Shown here: positions 24,215 through 32,000 of the stretch, piece by piece | Layout of the letters: each line of letters starts with the position of its first letter | How positions within the stretch are numbered: position 1 is the first letter of the stretch | DNA from: Acaryochloris marina MBIC11017 | Lineage (GTDB): Bacteria; Cyanobacteriota; Cyanobacteriia; Thermosynechococcales; Thermosynechococcaceae | Direction of reading: 5' to 3' | NCBI RefSeq assembly: GCF_000018105.1 | Contig: NC_009930.1 | Location: forward strand, 120,001 to 152,000 | Length of the DNA: 32,000 bases | Position numbers and translations under genes: made by a program | The notes under the pieces: model-generated | The model's input: the letters and a program-made list of their open reading frames with translations, nothing else | Told to the model about the DNA's origin: nothing | The model's database searches: none

Positions 24215-26008
24215 TTAAAGGGCTGAAATTCCAATCGCTAAGATTTCACTGCCGTCGTCTTGGGGAGATGAGGATTGCTGCTGTTCGGGTTCAGGCTCTG
24301 GCAATGCTTCTCTGGCACGGGTTTGATATCGGACCAACTCTTCATCGGTTTTAGCGAGGGCTTTGCTGTTCGCCCGTGCCACTCTGCGATACCGATACCA
24401 TTCACTAATCCCCTGTTTGATTTCCTGTTGCTCCCACTGGGGGATCACTGTTTCATAGAGGACAGGGATTCTCGCCATCTTTTTATTTCTAAAAGCTCGG
24501 TTCAAGTAGTAGAACTGTCCTTGGGGGAGACCCAGTAATTCTTGTAGTGGCACCAGATCCTTCAGATGAGGCTGATTACTTTCGGAGCTGGATGAATGCT
24601 TACCTTTTGATTTGGATTTACTCTGAGACTTGATTTCTTTTTGACCAAACTGTTTGCTGTAGTATTCTGCGGGTTCGTTGGCGTTGAGCTGACCAATGAC
24701 CTGTGTTTTGCAGCCCTCTATCAGGCCCATTGCAGCCTTCTCTCCATAGGTGCCTTTCAAGAAGGAGAACCCTTGGCTAGCAAACACAAAAAATACGCCA
24801 TTGGAACGGGTGACGGTCTGCATCTCTTGGACACCGCACAGTTTAATCATTTGGCATTCATCCAGGAAGAAGCCAAGGGGCTGCGTTCTGGCCCGGTAAG
24901 CGTTAGCTAACATAAAGCACTGGATCGTCGTCGCGATCATCGGCCCCACGCTGGCCTTCAGTTCTGGGTTGAGTCGGAAGATAACGAGGGTCTTACCTTT
25001 AATTTCTAAGTCAACGGTGGAGTCACCGCAAAACGTAGATACATTCGCGGGAGTGAACATGCGGTTGAACTGAAGGAGGGTTGTACCCGCAATGCTGGCC
25101 CCCGTCTCCGCTGATTTCTCAGATGCCAGATATTGACTGAAGGAGGATCTGAGATATGGGGGAAGATCTAAGGATCTAATCCCCGCTGCTCCAATTTCGA
25201 CAATTCGTTCCAAGAGGTAGAACGCCAAGACAAAATTAGCGTTGGGGTCTAGATAGAGTGCCAGCAAGAATACGGATTGCAAGAGCTGCTTCGCGGCCAG
25301 GGGGAAAAACTCATCTCCATTATCAGCGGCTGTTTTCGCTAAGTTCTCGCTAAGGACTTCGGCAACGACTCCAGCCCCATCTTTATCTTCATAGGCTTCT
25401 CGGCCAAACCGAGAGCGGATCATCTGATAGATATTGAAGACATCCGAGTCGTCGTATCCTGGTGCAATTATTTTGACTTTGTACCCGTGAAGCCTGGCAT
25501 AACCCGCAATCTCTGAAGAGGGGCAAGTGGAGGTCTCTGACTCTTCATGACCTTTGGCATCAAACACTGCCAGAGGATAGCCCAGCTTGATCATGCATCG
25601 CTGGAGAGGATTGAGAAGTGAGTAACTTTTACCTGACCCCGTTGAACCTAATGCAACCAGATGTTCTTCAAGATGAGATAGTATCCACGAATTGACATAA
25701 TCTCTGGGAATGAATATCTCTCTAGCTTCCTTATCAACCACCACCCCTTTAGGTTCTCCCACCCACAAGGCAACTTTGTTGCGCTTGCGCTCCTCCATCA
25801 TGTCAAAGCCATAGGTCTTAGCTTTCTTTACCTCTTTCGGAGTCGCTTTACGGGCATCGCCAAGCTTTTGCTTTTTACTGAAGCCGTCTTTGAAAATCAG
25901 CAAAATGATGAGTATTAGAAACAAACCACCCATCAAATAAACCTGGAAGTCAATCTGAGGCCCAAATTGTTGAGGGGGCTGAGGGGGTTGCTCGGTATGT
26001 TGTGGCAT
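24215..26008 (-). CDS. type IV secretion coupling protein (VirD4/TraG/TraD-like ATPase)
   Basis: N-terminal TM helix (LMGGLFLILIILLIF), Walker A GSTGSGKS and Walker B GFFLDECQ. Confidence 0.85.
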   Translation of the reverse strand: MPQHTEQPPQPPQQFGPQIDFQVYLMGGLFLILIILLIFKDGFSKKQKLGDARKATPKEVKKAKTYGFDMMEERKRNKVALWVGEPKGVVVDKEAREIFIPRDYVNSWILSHLEEHLVALGSTGSGKSYSLLNPLQRCMIKLGYPLAVFDAKGHEESETSTCPSSEIAGYARLHGYKVKIIAPGYDDSDVFNIYQMIRSRFGREAYEDKDGAGVVAEVLSENLAKTAADNGDEFFPLAAKQLLQSVFLLALYLDPNANFVLAFYLLERIVEIGAAGIRSLDLPPYLRSSFSQYLASEKSAETGASIAGTTLLQFNRMFTPANVSTFCGDSTVDLEIKGKTLVIFRLNPELKASVGPMIATTIQCFMLANAYRARTQPLGFFLDECQMIKLCGVQEMQTVTRSNGVFFVFASQGFSFLKGTYGEKAAMGLIEGCKTQVIGQLNANEPAEYYSKQFGQKEIKSQSKSKSKGKHSSSSESNQPHLKDLVPLQELLGLPQGQFYYLNRAFRNKKMARIPVLYETVIPQWEQQEIKQGISEWYRYRRVARANSKALAKTDEELVRYQTRAREALPEPEPEQQQSSSPQDDGSEILAIGISAL

Positions 26009-26076: not shown

Positions 26077-26445
26077 TTATCGCTGCCATTGTCGCCATTT
26101 TGGATTAAAAGCATCAAACAAAGCTTCAGCTTCCTCAACTGTCATACCGTTCTCACGAGCATAAACATCGACAGGAGGCCAACCTCGCATTGAATCAGTA
26201 ACAACAACCCAACCTTGATCTGAGTTACGTAGCGTTGCTGAACTACCAGCATGTCCATCAGTCCAACTTACTAATGCAAAATTCCCTACAATTGCAACTT
26301 TATTAATTACTGCTGAAGGAGATAACGCAGAACTGGCAGTAGCAATTACTTCCTCAACTTGATCATTTGATTGGACTTGCGCGATCGCAACTGGAGAACT
26401 CAGAACAAACATTAAGACAACTGCACTCAATATTTTCCCAATCAT
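26077..26445 (-). CDS. small secreted protein (122 aa from ATG 26445)
   Basis: Signal peptide (MIGKILSAVVLMFVLSSPVAIAQ). ATG 26443-26445 overlaps the TGA 26442-26444 of the upstream gene (ATGA coupling). Confidence 0.6.
   Translation of the reverse strand: MIGKILSAVVLMFVLSSPVAIAQVQSNDQVEEVIATASSALSPSAVINKVAIVGNFALVSWTDGHAGSSATLRNSDQGWVVVTDSMRGWPPVDVYARENGMTVEEAEALFDAFNPKWRQWQR
26381..26388. repeat. HIP1 octamer GCGATCGC
   Basis: Exact match. Confidence 0.9.
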
Positions 26446-29054
26446 CTTGTTACTCTCCATATTTGTGTTTGAGGATTGTCAGACAAGTATCTTGAATTAT
26501 CATACGTTCCATCAAAATTCCTATCTGAAACCCAACTAAACGATGCACGACCAGAAGAATTAGACAGAATCTGACTACAGCCTACATTCATACATACACC
26601 AATGTGTTGATAACCTTTTGAAAGGGCAATATCTCCGGGTTGTGCTTCAGAAGGATTGACTTGCTTACCTCGGCCAGCAGCAAACTTATCAGCCCAAGTC
26701 GGAACCCAATCAGTCTGCATAGGCTGAATTCCTGCTCTAGCTAGTACATGATCTACAGACCAAGCACAAGCTTGATTCCCACCTTCAGGTCCACCTGATG
26801 TATCAAATCCCCGCATTTGCTTAGCCGATTCAAAGATAGCGTTATTGATTTCTCCCGCTTCCGGTGCTGGACCTTGAGCAAAAGTGGCTGAGCCATTGGT
26901 GGGCTGGCAGAAAGGAACCCCAAAAGATGCAGTGGCACCCGTTGGAGTAACCGGAGCATTGCCATTAGGACCATAGACTTCAAGGGCAACTGGATCATTC
27001 CACTTCACATCTTCCGCTCCTCCAGGGAGACTGGTGAACTGATTACGCCCCAACAAATAATCAGCAGCCTCAAAATTACCTGAACGAATATAGCCGATGA
27101 TGTCATGGCCGACTTCCTGACCATAGATATCAATCCAAGCTAATGCAGCACGATCACGCTCTTCTTTGCTTTCAGACCAAGCATCAATACCTGTCCTAGT
27201 AAAAAGCGTATTTCGACTCTTCTCGATGAATTGATATTCACCATATGCACCCGTATCAGGATGTGGCCCAATATCAGTTCCTCCAGTAGATTCACCATAC
27301 GCAATGCGGGCTAGATATTGATTGATATGATGTTGTTCACTGTTTGGAGGTGAGCTACCATCAGCACCACCAGTCGTCTGATTTGAATCGGTGGTATTGT
27401 TCGTTTGTGCTGAGGCAACCAATGTAGGTTCCCGGCAAAACTGCTGTTGACTGGGCTGGAGATTACGGATTGCATCAGGAATGCCCCCAGATCGAGCTAG
27501 AAGCAACATGATTCCACCTTCTTTAATGCGCCAGGGGGTTGGAATCCTGATGAAATGAGGGGTGTAATGACTCCCAGTAATTGGATCTGAATAGCCAAAC
27601 TGCCATGCCGTGGACAACCGGGCAGATCCCACCTCATCCCCTGACCCTTCCCTCATGTCTTCCAGGTACAGCTTGACATTGCCTGCCACCCAAGGCTTAA
27701 TCCCGGTGACCTCCTTGCCATTGGCTATAATTCTCAACCAGCCTTGCCCACCGGGCACCATCTGATCTGGCCCTTGAATCCAGGCTTGCCCTGATAACTT
27801 CGTGGGTTCGCCACCCCCATCAACATTGTCCAACTCAAAGTGACGACAGTTCTTGGTATCTTTCCCATCGATTTTGCAGGGTGCAGGTTTAGGAATTTGG
27901 TCTTTGGTCCCACCACTGATTACATAGTCGATGTTATCGACCACTGCGGCAGCATCGGTCGTATCAATTCGCCCCAGCAAATCCAATCGAGTGAAGCTCA
28001 ACGCTAACGCTAAATCAATCTGGTCAAGCGGTACATCTTTGAGGCCAGGGACTTGATTGAGGGTCTTATCTTCAGAACCGGGGATATCCTTAATCGCTGT
28101 CTCTCCCACACCAGGAGCATCAGCCAATCCCAGCTTATCGAGGGGCAAGGTTCCAAGGGGTAAATCCTTTATTGCTTTGGCGATTTTGGGATTCTTCATC
28201 AACTCTTTGATCAGAACTTTGGACCCTTCTTTGATCGCTAAATCCTTAGCCTGCTTTTTGACGGTATCCCAATCCCCGTTGATAATCCCCTGAGTTAATG
28301 GGATGAGCTGCTTTAAGGGCAGTTTCCGCAGACGATTATTGACCTTGCTTAAAGTCTTCGCTAGCTTGCTCCGTTCCTCTTCTGTGAATACGTCACCCCA
28401 GTCTCCCTCTATTAAATCTTCAGCAGGGATATCTGAAATCTCTGGGTTAGACGCTTTCTGTTCGATAAAAACAATGTCTGTTTGATCAATGGGTTCATGT
28501 AGAAGCGGTTCGTCCTCGTAGTATCCAAATGCAGATTGCACCACTGCGGGGGCTTCTTCTAAAGATTGTTCAGCCGCACCAGGATTAATTTGCAGATACT
28601 CTCCCACTGTCATTGTTGATGCGATTGGAACCTCAGACAGGGTTACGGTTGCGGGGTCTTTGCCACTGGCTTTCAAAACCTCATTGATATTCAATTCCGT
28701 AAACTGCTTAAACTGCGGATGATTTTTCAGGTGTCCGATCTTGAGAACTTGATCTGAGCTTGCGTTTGCGGGCCATGCCCCATTGAGATAGGAGGGTGCT
28801 TGGGAACCTGCGGGCAATCGAATACTCCCCGCTGTTTCAGAGGCTGGACTATTGGCAAAGGTCGGTGCGACGACACCAGATGGGTCATAGTACAGGCCTG
28901 GTATCGTGCCTTCTTCCTGGGTTTGAGTATTTTGATTAGCAGCCTTTATGGACTGCTGGTTGATAATCTGTGCTACTGCTGGGAACGATTGTAGGGTGAG
29001 TACAGCAGCAGGTAGTAGGCTGAATATTCGTTGGGGATATCGAGGCATGATCAA
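26442..29054 (-). CDS. secreted bifunctional peptidoglycan hydrolase (lytic-transglycosylase-like + CHAP/NlpC-P60-like), 870 aa
   Basis: Signal peptide (LLPAAVLTLQSFPAVAQ). SLT-like IAYGESTGG...GAYGEYQF. C-terminal Cys-His peptidase pattern GGNQACAWSVDHVL...GDIALSKGYQHIGVC. Confidence 0.8.
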   Translation of the reverse strand: MIMPRYPQRIFSLLPAAVLTLQSFPAVAQIINQQSIKAANQNTQTQEEGTIPGLYYDPSGVVAPTFANSPASETAGSIRLPAGSQAPSYLNGAWPANASSDQVLKIGHLKNHPQFKQFTELNINEVLKASGKDPATVTLSEVPIASTMTVGEYLQINPGAAEQSLEEAPAVVQSAFGYYEDEPLLHEPIDQTDIVFIEQKASNPEISDIPAEDLIEGDWGDVFTEEERSKLAKTLSKVNNRLRKLPLKQLIPLTQGIINGDWDTVKKQAKDLAIKEGSKVLIKELMKNPKIAKAIKDLPLGTLPLDKLGLADAPGVGETAIKDIPGSEDKTLNQVPGLKDVPLDQIDLALALSFTRLDLLGRIDTTDAAAVVDNIDYVISGGTKDQIPKPAPCKIDGKDTKNCRHFELDNVDGGGEPTKLSGQAWIQGPDQMVPGGQGWLRIIANGKEVTGIKPWVAGNVKLYLEDMREGSGDEVGSARLSTAWQFGYSDPITGSHYTPHFIRIPTPWRIKEGGIMLLLARSGGIPDAIRNLQPSQQQFCREPTLVASAQTNNTTDSNQTTGGADGSSPPNSEQHHINQYLARIAYGESTGGTDIGPHPDTGAYGEYQFIEKSRNTLFTRTGIDAWSESKEERDRAALAWIDIYGQEVGHDIIGYIRSGNFEAADYLLGRNQFTSLPGGAEDVKWNDPVALEVYGPNGNAPVTPTGATASFGVPFCQPTNGSATFAQGPAPEAGEINNAIFESAKQMRGFDTSGGPEGGNQACAWSVDHVLARAGIQPMQTDWVPTWADKFAAGRGKQVNPSEAQPGDIALSKGYQHIGVCMNVGCSQILSNSSGRASFSWVSDRNFDGTYDNSRYLSDNPQTQIWRVTR

Positions 29055-29270: not shown

Positions 29271-31802
29271 TTAAGTATCCAACTCCTTTATTTTTTTACA
29301 GCAATCGTCAAAATTGCTCTGAACTTTAAATGTGTATGGATGTTCATCACCCAAGAGGTTCTGGAGTATATTCAGGCTTTGTTCGTAGAGGGATTTCGCT
29401 TTGCTGTACCGTCCTTGGATATCGTAGAGTTCTGCCAGGTTATTGAGGCTACGAGCAACATTGGGGTGTTCGTTGCCCAAGAGTTTCTGGAGCATCTCCA
29501 AGGATTGCACATAGAGGGGTTTCGCTTTGCTGTACCGTCCTTGGATGTAGTAAAGTTTTGCCAGGTTATTGAGGCTTTGAGCGACATCGGGATGTTCGTT
29601 GCCCAAGAGCTTCTGTCTCATCTCCAAGGCTTGGTCATAGAGGGGTTCGGCTTCGCTGTACCGTTCTAGGGTGTAGTAGAGGAAGGCCAGGTTATTGAGA
29701 CTTTGAGCGACATCGGGGTGTTCGTTGCCCAAGAGCTTCTGGCACATTTCCAAGGTTTGGACATAGAGGGGTTCGGCTTCGCTGTACCGTCCTTGGCTTT
29801 CGTAGAGTCCTGCCAGGCTATTGAGGCACACCGCGACATCGGGATGTTCGTTGCCCAAGAGCTTCTGTCTCATCTCCAAGGCTTGGTCATAGAGGGGTTC
29901 GGCTTCGCTGTACCGTCCTTGGCTTTCGTAGACTGTTGCCAGGTTAATGAGGCTTGTTGCGACATCGGGGTGTTCGCCGCCCAAGAGCTTCTGTCTCATC
30001 TCCAAGGCTCTGTCATAGAGGGGTTCGGCTTCGCTGTACCGTCCTTGTTTGTAGTAGAGTGTTGCCAGGTTATTGAGGCACATCGCGACATCGGGATGTT
30101 CGTTGCCCAAGAGCTTCTGGCACATTTCCAAGGCTTGGTCATAGAGGGGTTCGGCTTCGCTGTACCGTCCTTGCCTGTCGAAGAGTGATGCCAGGTTATT
30201 GAGGCTTGTTGCGACATCGGGGTGTTCGCCGCCCAAGAGCTTCTGGCACATTTCCAAGGCTTGGACATAGAGGGGTTCGGCTTCGCTGTACCGTCCTTGC
30301 CTGTCGAAGAGTAATGCCAGGTTATTAAGGCTTTGAGCGACATCGGGGTGTTCGCTGCCTAAGAGCTTCTGTCTCATCTCCAAGGCTTGGTCATAGAGGG
30401 GTTTGGCTTCGCTGTACCGTCCTTGGTTGTAGTGGAGTAATGCCAGGTTATTGAGGCTTGTTGCGACATCGGGGTGTTCAGTACCGAATCTTTTTTTTGC
30501 CTGTACCAGGCATTTTTGTCTCCAGGGTAAAGCTAAACCATAGTTTCCTTGCCCTTCATAATATCGACCGATACCTTGAAAAGGTAGGATCAAGTCATCA
30601 TCACTGAGATGGTCAATCCATTTTCTGATAAGTTCCTCTAGATGAGGAATGCAACCTTTTATCTCAGTAATTACATCAATCGTTGGACGTTCATCAATAC
30701 CCTGTTCAATACCCACTATTCCTCTGCAATAAGCCGTTTTGAGGGATTCCCCCTTGTCAGTGCGCTCATGCAACTTAATCCGAAAGAACTCCTTTACAAT
30801 TTGATGGAGTTGATAGGTACTCTCTTCCACTCGTTTGAGTAAATTTCTATCTCTTAAACCTTCATCTCTAAGGTCTTCCAGATCATCATTATCCTGATCA
30901 AATAGACACTCTTCAACCAGATGCCAAGGAATCGGTGCAATCGCAAACATGCCTAATAAACAGGCAAGTTCTTGTTCTACCTCACTTAGTTCTACCCAGC
31001 TCAACTCCAATGCAGAAGCTACCCCTAACTGAGCCGTCATCCCTGATTCTTTGGCAATAAGAGCTTTCGCTGTTAGTTTCTTGGATTCAAGACGCTCAAC
31101 TAGTTTTTCAAAGGACCAGTCTAATTTTCTCGCTAGAAATCGTCCCAACAATTCTAATCCTAACGGTAGGTTACCCACCCAACCACATAGGGTTTTAGCA
31201 GCTTCTAGCTGTGAATAAATCCGGTCTGGTCCCACTAGCGTTTCTAGAAGTGCCAAGGCACTTTCATCATCGAGTTCTTCAATGGACAAAGACTGCACAG
31301 AGCTACCCAAGTTCAAACGAGTTGTCAGCAACACTTTGAACTTCGGATCTGAGGGAGGCAGATAAGGCTCAACTGCATCAAACTCAGTTACATCATCGAG
31401 AACAACTAGCACATCCCCCTCTCGCCAATGTCCCCAGGAATAGTCAACCTGGCCTTTTTCATCTAATCCATCTGGGAGAGTAATACCCAGCTTGGTCTGA
31501 GCAAACGACACAATTTGGGTTGCGATCTCTTGGTCCCTGGCTCTTAGCCAGCAAAATCCACCGGGGTATTGCTCCTGTTCTAATTGAGCTATGGCGTATT
31601 GCAATGCCAGCTCTGTTTTACCAATGCCCCCCATCCCAGCGATGGCTGTAATCGCAATCCGCTGGTTGTTTTGTAATTGCTCGCGAAGGTCTTGAAGCTT
31701 TTGGTTACGGCCAACAAACTCCTTGACACCACTTCGGGGAAGGTTAGAGGGAATGCCAGTAGGAGGATTTAACTTTGCCCAGTCCCGCTCAGGCGACTCT
31801 AG
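29271..31802 (-). CDS. NLR-like STAND NTPase: NB-ARC domain + 9 TPR (42-aa) units; start unresolved, possibly a pseudogene
   Basis: P-loop GMGGIGKT, Walker B VLVVLDDV and a TPR array. The frame is open from the TGA at 31803-31805. There is no ATG/GTG/TTG between that TGA and the ATG at 31634, and that ATG lies inside the P-loop. Confidence 0.8.
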   Translation of the reverse strand, partial: LESPERDWAKLNPPTGIPSNLPRSGVKEFVGRNQKLQDLREQLQNNQRIAITAIAGMGGIGKTELALQYAIAQLEQEQYPGGFCWLRARDQEIATQIVSFAQTKLGITLPDGLDEKGQVDYSWGHWREGDVLVVLDDVTEFDAVEPYLPPSDPKFKVLLTTRLNLGSSVQSLSIEELDDESALALLETLVGPDRIYSQLEAAKTLCGWVGNLPLGLELLGRFLARKLDWSFEKLVERLESKKLTAKALIAKESGMTAQLGVASALELSWVELSEVEQELACLLGMFAIAPIPWHLVEECLFDQDNDDLEDLRDEGLRDRNLLKRVEESTYQLHQIVKEFFRIKLHERTDKGESLKTAYCRGIVGIEQGIDERPTIDVITEIKGCIPHLEELIRKWIDHLSDDDLILPFQGIGRYYEGQGNYGLALPWRQKCLVQAKKRFGTEHPDVATSLNNLALLHYNQGRYSEAKPLYDQALEMRQKLLGSEHPDVAQSLNNLALLFDRQGRYSEAEPLYVQALEMCQKLLGGEHPDVATSLNNLASLFDRQGRYSEAEPLYDQALEMCQKLLGNEHPDVAMCLNNLATLYYKQGRYSEAEPLYDRALEMRQKLLGGEHPDVATSLINLATVYESQGRYSEAEPLYDQALEMRQKLLGNEHPDVAVCLNSLAGLYESQGRYSEAEPLYVQTLEMCQKLLGNEHPDVAQSLNNLAFLYYTLERYSEAEPLYDQALEMRQKLLGNEHPDVAQSLNNLAKLYYIQGRYSKAKPLYVQSLEMLQKLLGNEHPNVARSLNNLAELYDIQGRYSKAKSLYEQSLNILQNLLGDEHPYTFKVQSNFDDCCKKIKELDT
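29347..30483 (-). repeat. 9 x 126-bp near-identical tandem units (TPR array)
   Basis: Unit EHPDVAxSLNNLAxLYxxQGRYSEAEPLYxQALEMxQKLLGx is repeated nine times with high nucleotide identity. Confidence 0.9.
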
Positions 31803-32000
31803 TCAAACGGTCTTATTGATGGTGATGTTTTCACCTTGAAAAACCTCACCACCTGAAATGCTGTTTTGGAAGTTGGTTCCACCGTAGTTATTTTGAACTT
31901 GGGTGTTTGTGTCCTTACTGATATGAAAATTAATTTCTTGGGCTATCTGCCGTAATTCCCCAGCAAAGGCTTCATCTAGCATTTCTACGCCTAGCAGAGT
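31803..32000 (-). CDS. partial ORF (C-terminal 65 codons) ending in a G/N/Q-rich segment, in frame with the NB-ARC ORF
   Basis: My own translation of the minus strand gives ...LLGVEMLDEAFAGELRQIAQEINFHISKDTNTQVQNNYGGTNFQNSISGGEVFQGENITINKTV-TGA. The ORF runs off the window edge. Confidence 0.55.
   Translation of the reverse strand, partial: TLLGVEMLDEAFAGELRQIAQEINFHISKDTNTQVQNNYGGTNFQNSISGGEVFQGENITINKTV

Follow-up and report, generated by a model that had tools for sequence, protein, structure and literature searches.

How can a large sensor protein be produced from an open reading frame (ORF) that lacks a start codon of its own? This question is raised by a 32,000-nucleotide stretch of DNA from Acaryochloris marina MBIC11017, a member of a unicellular cyanobacterial genus (RefSeq assembly GCF_000018105.1, contig NC_009930.1, positions 120,001 to 152,000; hereafter the window, whose numbering is used unless another sequence is named). 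Towards its right end, two ORFs on the minus strand lie in one reading frame and are split by a TGA at 31803-31805; the upstream ORF encodes a short effector-like protein and the downstream ORF an NB-ARC domain followed by tetratricopeptide repeats (TPR), the build of a protein resembling NOD-like receptors (NLR). The comparison of 42 such junctions from cyanobacteria points to programmed readthrough of the UGA, supported by a small RNA pseudoknot 8 nt downstream, by which one frame would yield both a free effector and an effector-sensor fusion.

Two open reading frames in one frame and a missing start

The first-pass annotation of the window had reported that an in-frame TGA separates a G/N/Q-rich region from the NB-ARC domain. 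Computational re-translation of the minus strand matched the reported residues exactly, hence the frame assignment stands. When the sequence was read 1.5 kb beyond the window edge, the upstream ORF proved to be complete with 142 codons (window-equivalent 31806-32231, minus strand, corresponding to L005:2005-2430), of which the C-terminal 65 codons lie within the window (31806-32000) and the start lies outside at the 32231-equivalent position. Its last 32 codons before the stop (31806-31901, minus strand) encode a G/N/Q-rich, strand-prone tail resembling the bacterial amyloid signalling sequence (BASS) motifs. Past the TGA the frame remains open for 843 codons up to a stop at 29271-29273, and this ORF (29271-31802, minus strand) comprises a linker, an NB-ARC domain at 31065-31706 (Pfam PF00931, E 4.7e-16, residues 33-246 of the post-stop ORF) with the P-loop GMGGIGKT at 31614-31637, and a TPR array at 29364-30467 as the sensor part (residues ~446-813; Pfam TPR_12, E 2e-179, and TPR_10, E 4e-135). 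The protein on the TPR side also matches NCBIfam NF040586 with 352 bits at a cut-off of 300. Judged from these domain matches, the downstream ORF is an NLR-like STAND NTPase with a P-loop NB-ARC domain followed by a TPR repeat sensor.

No conventional start for this second ORF was found. The earlier statement that the TGA and the P-loop are not connected by any ATG, GTG or TTG holds over all 55 codons up to the first glycine of the P-loop, and the ORF listing agrees that the first ATG, at 31634, is the methionine inside GMGGIGKT. Two candidates for an unusual start were tried and rejected: a TTG overlapping the stop lies in another frame, which closes after five codons, and an ATT at codon 17 after the stop, which is ATA in a RefSeq orthologue, is not conserved as isoleucine in other loci. 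A terminator-like site is present upstream of the effector gene, and none was seen on the minus strand between the effector ORF and the NB-ARC ORF. Since both ORFs share one frame, frameshifting, including a +1 shift of the prfB type, is excluded, and the ribosome has either to decode the stop or to bypass 3n nucleotides. Ribosome hopping was rejected as well, because the would-be take-off codons differ between loci (GTT, ATT, AAT, ACT, AAC and others) and are not matched by a conserved landing site.

Public records do not recognise a readthrough layout at orthologous junctions. In A. marina S15 (L118, NZ_CP064927.1), RefSeq splits the junction into a 142-residue 'hypothetical protein' and a 'tetratricopeptide repeat protein' whose start is set at an in-frame ATA 48 nt past the stop. 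The same split is found in Acaryochloris sp. 'Moss Beach' (L119, NZ_CP071721.1), there with a GTG 87 nt past the stop as the NLR start.

Conservation of the stop and selection on both sides

A former single NLR gene would present the same picture, a lone in-frame stop without a downstream start, after a recent nonsense mutation or a base-calling error, and both readings had been put forward in the first-pass annotation. They were examined by comparison with related loci. A DNA search of the same genome identified paralogues on C5 (90% identical), C9 (67%) and, more weakly, C1; in each of them a TGA in the corresponding frame precedes the P-loop by 55 codons, and among the first three copies 13 bases around the stop are invariant despite an overall identity down to 67%. 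A single-protein query of the genome contigs returned one unrelated weak match only. The junction protein was then searched against 400 cyanobacterial genomes, 141 of which contained matches; in 22 of the 150 matches listed the alignment runs across an in-frame TGA, in one across a TAG. Measurements on 22 loci, seven of this genus and fifteen from nine further families, placed the stop 48-61 codons ahead of the P-loop and gave an upstream open frame of more than 100 codons. From these 22 loci a covariance model was made that included only stem 1 of the pseudoknot described below. Its search in 151 genomes added 20 further loci, each with a stop (18 TGA, 2 TAG) at the codon given by the model and with a long ORF on either side; a P-loop STAND domain follows downstream in most of them. 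At two of the model matches (L095, G055:C1:2248230-2251286; L103, G136:C1:4286580-4289639) a long ORF follows, and no P-loop was seen in its first ~75 residues; the UGA-pseudoknot cassette may thus also precede other STAND or non-NB-ARC bodies.

Altogether 42 junctions, four of this genome and 38 in other cyanobacteria, were collected from at least 12 families. The stop is TGA in 39 and TAG in three of them; neither TAA nor a sense codon occurs, and long open frames flank the stop in every case. By comparison, TGA ends 23% of the long ORFs in this genome, and the genome-wide share of TAA is 46%; the binomial value for the TGA bias is 6e-22, in which the relatedness of the loci is not considered, so that it marks the upper limit of significance. 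The surrounding bases are restricted, too. The +4 base is C in 38 of the 42 junctions, CTA or CTG follows as the next codon in 35, and a T precedes the stop in 33; in the window the UGA is followed by C-U-A-G.

To estimate selection, the window locus was compared pairwise with six homologues, two of them paralogues within this genome and four from other genomes, by the ratio of non-synonymous to synonymous substitution rates (dN/dS). This ratio was 0.11-0.19 in the effector ORF, 0.15-0.19 in the NB-ARC part and 0.14-0.29 in the 55-codon linker, values that indicate purifying selection on both ORFs. An ORF that is selected yet start-less must be reached from the effector ORF. In addition, with the two closest homologues (L006 and L013) dS in the first 30 post-stop codons is 0.09-0.14 in comparison to 0.4-0.5 elsewhere, pointing to an extra constraint at the nucleotide level.

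Hence, inactivation by a nonsense mutation can be rejected: the relaxed constraint and lineage-specific lesion expected of a pseudogene were not found among these loci, in which the stop is kept in all 42 cases and dN/dS is 0.11-0.29 on both sides of it. Sequencing error is rejected with the same 42 loci, whose 57-mers at the junction are all distinct and thus not assembly copies of one sequence. Moreover, related contigs from three sequencing studies cover the site, and among the differences listed for them, which do not show all weak ones, none falls on 31803-31805; the nearby differences are those of the C5-type paralogue. Among the sequencing runs listed as containing the stretch there was no RNA run, and the best-matching DNA runs share only 5-15% of its words and represent relatives. 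A dead gene or a sequencing error is therefore highly improbable.

A co-varying pseudoknot behind the stop

The nucleotides after the stop can be folded into an H-type pseudoknot with stem 1 at nt 9-13/22-26 and stem 2 at nt 16-20/36-40 after the stop. In the window it occupies 31764-31794 on the minus strand, with stem 1 at 31790-31794/31777-31781, stem 2 at 31783-31786/31764-31767 and an A-rich loop 3 of 9 nt at 31768-31776. It is preceded by a spacer (31795-31802, minus strand), which is 8 nt long in all 42 junctions, the 22 loci that align without gaps and the 20 covariance-model matches. The spacer is not purine-rich; the window copy has 4 purines among its 8 bases and the consensus CT(A/G)(G/C)AGTC is mixed.

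Over the 22 aligned loci, 90% of the cells of the proposed stems are paired, whereas column shuffles gave 75.6% (0 of 500 reached the observed value) and partners slid along the alignment 20-50%. Stem 1 is paired to 99%, and two of its pairs change on both sides, one between C-G (11 loci) and U-A (11) and the other among U-G (9), C-G (8) and G-C (5). In stem 2, one pair varies among G-C (9), A-U (7), C-G (3) and G-U (2), and pairing amounts to 81%, a value that is lowered by a one-base register shift in one subgroup. Over all 42 loci, the loop fits its own downstream arm better than the arms of other loci (-7.0 vs -5.55 kcal/mol, 0 of 5000 permutations), and this preference is also present in the 20 new loci, which the model had picked without knowledge of stem 2. 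The base pair 10/25 toggles between C-G and U-A, thereby driving Pro/Ala to Ser/Thr changes in the encoded peptide; the pairing is kept while the peptide changes, which argues that selection acts on the RNA and not on the peptide. Collectively, the alignment indicates that the element is an H-type pseudoknot with both stems backed by compensatory changes, the statistics being upper bounds because the loci are related. A loose pseudoknot descriptor matched 313 stop triplets genome-wide by chance; ORFs on both sides were present at four of them, exactly the four NLR junctions. Rfam contained no family matching 31650-31900 at E <= 1.

A UGA closely followed by a conserved RNA structure is also the layout of bacterial selenoprotein genes, in which the UGA would be a selenocysteine codon and the structure a selenocysteine insertion sequence (SECIS) element. 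Against this, SelB was not detected at the family cut-off (the best match reached 188 bits instead of 242 and is a 410-residue open frame of EF-Tu-like size), ARAGORN found no tRNA-Sec among the 74 tRNAs of the genome, the structure is a pseudoknot and not a SECIS hairpin, and three loci use TAG. A selenoprotein is accordingly an extremely improbable explanation.

Readthrough, reinitiation or a conditional signal

Stop-codon readthrough, one of the options named in the first-pass annotation, came out as the best supported reading, in view of the weak UGA-C context and the co-varying pseudoknot 8 nt downstream. A UGA with C at +4 and CUA or CUG as the following codon is a context known for weak termination. 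We estimate a probability of roughly 0.7 that programmed readthrough of the UGA gives a free effector and an effector-motif-NB-ARC-TPR fusion. UGA-CUA contexts as well as a stop with an 8-nt spacer and a pseudoknot are established readthrough signals in viruses and eukaryotes, and a pseudoknot 8 nt downstream reproduces the geometry of the murine leukaemia virus (MuLV) readthrough signal and of frameshift stimulators (PMC7026636). Natural all-in-one fusions of Bell domains with NLRs have been reported as rare cases (bioRxiv 10.1101/2020.01.06.895854), hence the fusion architecture itself has a precedent.

According to this model, the locus would be a single transcription unit with one long frame broken by a programmed leaky UGA. 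The majority of the ribosomes would stop there and release the 142-residue effector. With the UGA in the A site, the pseudoknot would come to lie at the mRNA entrance of the ribosome, where it might, together with the weak UGA-C context, permit a near-cognate tRNA, probably tRNA-Trp, to occasionally beat release factor 2 (RF2). The readthrough product would be a fusion of ~986 residues consisting of effector, motif, NB-ARC domain and TPR array. The expected outcome is abundant free effector beside a rare sensor bearing the same motif at its N-terminal side; once oligomerised, the sensor would template the free effector or recruit it. The occurrence and efficiency of readthrough, the inserted amino acid and the amyloid/cell-death logic are what we infer from the sequence comparison. 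The fuller proposal is that pseudoknot-programmed UGA readthrough on bacterial ribosomes turns one frame into a complete NLR system, in which an abundant death-type effector and a rare fusion share one amyloid-type motif at a ratio set by the RNA, and in which the cassette serves as a portable joint for swapping effectors onto sensors; we give it a slightly better than even chance.

The tRNA complement was inspected in this regard. ARAGORN detected no suppressor tRNA among the 74 tRNAs of this genome. A special UGA-reading tRNA-Trp was considered and rejected, because the two credible tRNA-Trp(CCA) genes are drawn by ARAGORN with ordinary 5-bp anticodon stems whose top pair is intact, unlike the 4-bp-stem type (PMC13092985). 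At a distance of ~8.5 kb from the second tRNA-Trp(CCA) gene, ARAGORN also called an odd tRNA whose anticodon loop has 8 nt (tgta; C1:291195-291267 and C1:299739-299812), and a third 'tRNA-Trp' call at C1:3513958-3514041 looks spurious.

Several observations speak against readthrough and reduce our confidence in it. The pseudoknot copy of the window is weak, with three G-U pairs, two of them in stem 1 and the third in stem 2. The single-sequence fold of the junction is unremarkable (z +0.84), as computed with ViennaRNA, which cannot predict pseudoknots. Among the 42 loci, no homologue was seen in which a sense codon replaces the stop while the pseudoknot is retained, so a hard-wired fusion does not occur among these copies of the cassette. 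These loci are related, so that the permutation and binomial figures overstate independence, and the support for readthrough is comparative throughout. In two loci (L038, L042) a GTG stands directly after the stop and would permit reinitiation there. Finally, the literature searched contained no paper showing pseudoknot-stimulated readthrough on bacterial ribosomes. To our knowledge, such a case has not been described.

The GTG codons of these two loci lead to the main rival, in which the UGA terminates translation and two separate proteins are made, the NB-ARC-TPR ORF being started by reinitiation or at a non-canonical codon while the pseudoknot holds or pauses the ribosome. This is how RefSeq treats the orthologous junctions, with an ATA or a GTG as NLR start, and classical effector/NLR pairs are indeed tightly coupled genes, 42% of which overlap (bioRxiv 10.1101/2020.01.06.895854). 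However, the window offers no ATG, GTG or TTG over 55 codons, the out-of-frame TTG over the stop leads nowhere, CTA, CTG or CTC directly follows the stop in 38 of 42 loci, and many loci have Thr or Pro codons where the in-frame ATT/ATA would stand. Reinitiation does not need a UGA, yet TAA is absent from all 42 junctions, compared with 46% genome-wide. Furthermore, the resulting NLR would be without the motif that its two-gene relatives bear. Unusual reinitiation thus accounts for the RefSeq annotation but not for the avoidance of TAA, the missing conserved start or the motif-less NLR, and we consider it unlikely.

It is also conceivable that the UGA is tight in healthy cells and becomes suppressed when termination is perturbed, for instance by a phage-borne suppressor tRNA or a drop of RF2, in which case the fusion would act as an infection alarm. 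The position of the locus on a conjugative or mobilisable plasmid-type element among defence-like genes would fit such a role, the host has no suppressor tRNA of its own, and a stop that is nearly exclusively RF2-specific would suit a sensor of RF2 or of UGA decoding. This conditional mechanism is pure inference, however; a cognate suppressor tRNA would not need a stimulatory pseudoknot, and three loci have TAG instead of TGA. We regard it as quite unlikely and retain pseudoknot-programmed readthrough as the favoured explanation.

The effector and its relation to two-gene systems

The 142-residue protein could not be assigned to any family in Pfam, NCBIfam or PADLOC, and no sequence match in the PDB was below E 0.05. 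The AlphaFold2 model, based on 20 homologues, contains five helices at residues 9-102 with pLDDT (the predicted local confidence score) mostly 74-88, while the tail at residues 106-142 is of low confidence. Foldseek with this model found nothing in the PDB at E <= 0.001, and the best hit of a wide VIA-align search had Z 4.7, which is within the noise for helical bundles. The effector is predicted to consist of a helical N-terminal domain, which may be Bell-like, and a G/N/Q-rich amyloid-type tail.

Relatives of the protein are effectors of loci with two separate genes. The window effector is 47% identical (E 1e-36) to that of L017 and 40% to that of L045. In both loci, the effector ends in a G/N/Q motif, with which the tail of the window effector aligns, and a separate NLR gene opens with Met followed by the same motif, the arrangement by which the published Bell/BASS-NLR pairs are defined (bioRxiv 10.1101/2020.01.06.895854). 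Past its motif, the L017 NLR runs on into a linker that is also present in the window, there behind the segment encoded by the pseudoknot. By contrast, no copy of the tail motif was detected on the NB-ARC side of the window locus within the 55 codons after the stop. The alignments suggest that the window layout equals the two-gene layout minus the NLR-side motif and start, plus a UGA-pseudoknot cassette of ~13 codons, and the locus is apparently a one-frame version of the paired two-gene system. The first-pass annotation had considered a split arrangement recalling BASS gene pairs. This holds in so far as the short protein and its tail are homologous to paired-motif effectors, but the NB-ARC side has neither motif nor start, and the locus is not a canonical pair.

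The likeness to published Bell/BASS-NLR pairs (bioRxiv 10.1101/2020.01.06.895854) and to E. coli Bab/Agp (bioRxiv 10.1101/2024.11.07.622273) extends to an effector of ~140 residues that is predicted to be helical, carries a C-terminal G/N/Q motif and is encoded directly upstream of, and collinear with, an NB-ARC-TPR protein. Hydrolase, TIR and CHAT effectors take this position as well, in agreement with the earlier description of BASS motifs on such effectors (bioRxiv 10.1101/2020.01.06.895854). The present locus differs from such pairs by the lack of a motif copy and of a start codon on the NLR side, and by one frame that is split by a UGA and a pseudoknot. Stop codons or recoding are not mentioned in Dyrka et al. 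2020 (bioRxiv 10.1101/2020.01.06.895854), whose emphasis is on mostly filamentous hosts; the host genus here, the unicellular Acaryochloris, falls outside these.

Signs of module shuffling and putative frameshift signals in sister loci

The copy on C1 (L008) has a different effector, a 303-residue alpha/beta-hydrolase. Nevertheless, it has the motif tail, the stop and the pseudoknot in common with the C9 copy (L007), which encodes a helical effector; the 30 nt before the stop are identical in both, and so are the last 16 residues of the two tails. A second combination is found in L014 (G002:C5:197144-200740, i.e. A. marina S15, L118), where a window-type effector (dN 0.06) is joined to a linker and NB-ARC domain of the C9 type (dN 0.30 over the linker). 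The UGA-pseudoknot cassette therefore looks portable, and these mosaics would be signs of module shuffling at the junction.

Sister loci of the same genome and of related genomes show another arrangement at this boundary. In L009 (G000:C8:11318-14776) and L010 (G000:C9:49664-53116), both on the minus strand, a caspase-like effector ORF (HFSGHG...NGC) overlaps the NB-ARC ORF and is in the +1 frame relative to it. When the overlap was read in all three frames, it was found to contain A_AAA_AAG with a TAG immediately behind, and a -1 slip at this site enters the NB-ARC ORF. The same A-run occurs in the sister loci L018, L019, L022 and L053, and L012 on C8 has the same domains as a hard-wired fusion without recoding. 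A_AAA_AAG followed by a stop corresponds to the classical bacterial -1 frameshift signal of the dnaX/IS3 type, and its use would likewise result in a short effector beside a long fusion. The sister loci lend independent support to the two-product logic, as two unlike recoding devices at one domain boundary would lead to one outcome.

Comparison with known recoding systems

The closest formal parallel is MuLV gag-pol, with which the junction shares an in-frame stop between two selected ORFs, an 8-nt spacer and an H-type pseudoknot, a geometry that was tested here. In MuLV, this signal keeps the long fusion at a small, constant fraction next to a short protein made in abundance (PMC7026636). The differences are considerable, however: the gene described here belongs to a bacterial plasmid or chromosome and not to a eukaryotic virus, a bacterial ribosome and RF2 would be involved, UGA takes the place of UAG as the stop in 39 of 42 junctions, the stems of the much smaller pseudoknot have only 5 + 4-5 bp, and the spacer lacks the richness in purines.

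Among bacterial systems, E. coli dnaX (tau/gamma) and IS3 OrfA/OrfAB likewise use recoding for setting the ratio of a short and a long protein with a common N-terminus, and dnaX in particular has its counterpart in the sister NLR loci with A_AAA_AAG and a stop at the same effector/NB-ARC boundary. Unlike dnaX and IS3, the two ORFs of the window are in the same frame and a slippery heptamer is missing, so that readthrough and not frameshifting would be needed. Bacterial readthrough itself is exemplified by Q-beta A1 and B. subtilis SacB; these depend on the codon context alone, are not known to have a conserved 3' pseudoknot and extend the protein by a tail or domain, whereas here an effector would be joined to an 843-residue sensor. 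They share with the present locus a leaky readthrough of the UGA type on bacterial ribosomes that leads to a C-terminally extended product (PMC7026636).

Genomic setting

The plasmid-database matches to the NLR stretch are all Acaryochloris plasmids typed as conjugative or mobilisable. Two genes downstream of the NLR, the window encodes a 597-residue TraG/TraD-type coupling protein of type IV secretion systems (24218-26008, minus strand; PF12696, E 2e-27). Both observations place the locus on a mobile replicon. Directly downstream of the NLR gene lies an ORF of 870 codons (26445-29054, minus strand) without a Pfam family at E <= 0.001. Just past the right window edge, upstream of the effector gene, a 213-residue ORF (L001:2885-3523, minus strand) contains a repeated coiled segment rich in Lys and Arg, and membrane helices are predicted at either end of it; no Pfam family matched the protein, and a terminator-like hairpin lies between it and the effector gene.

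Implications

The literature searched did not contain a published description of a UGA-pseudoknot effector/NLR junction. If readthrough is true, the locus would represent, so far as the searched literature shows, the first pseudoknot-stimulated stop readthrough in a cellular bacterial gene, and a recoding device regarded as 'viral' would be extended to bacterial ribosomes and RF2. The dnaX-type frameshift at the same boundary in the sister genes provides a built-in comparison. The annotation of such loci would have to be corrected, as current records divide them in two by means of invented ATA or GTG starts, or would treat them as pseudogenes. Finally, cyanobacteria would possess a new NLR build with one frame, two products and one shared motif, in which the stoichiometry is written into the RNA and which stands between the two-gene and the all-in-one architectures.

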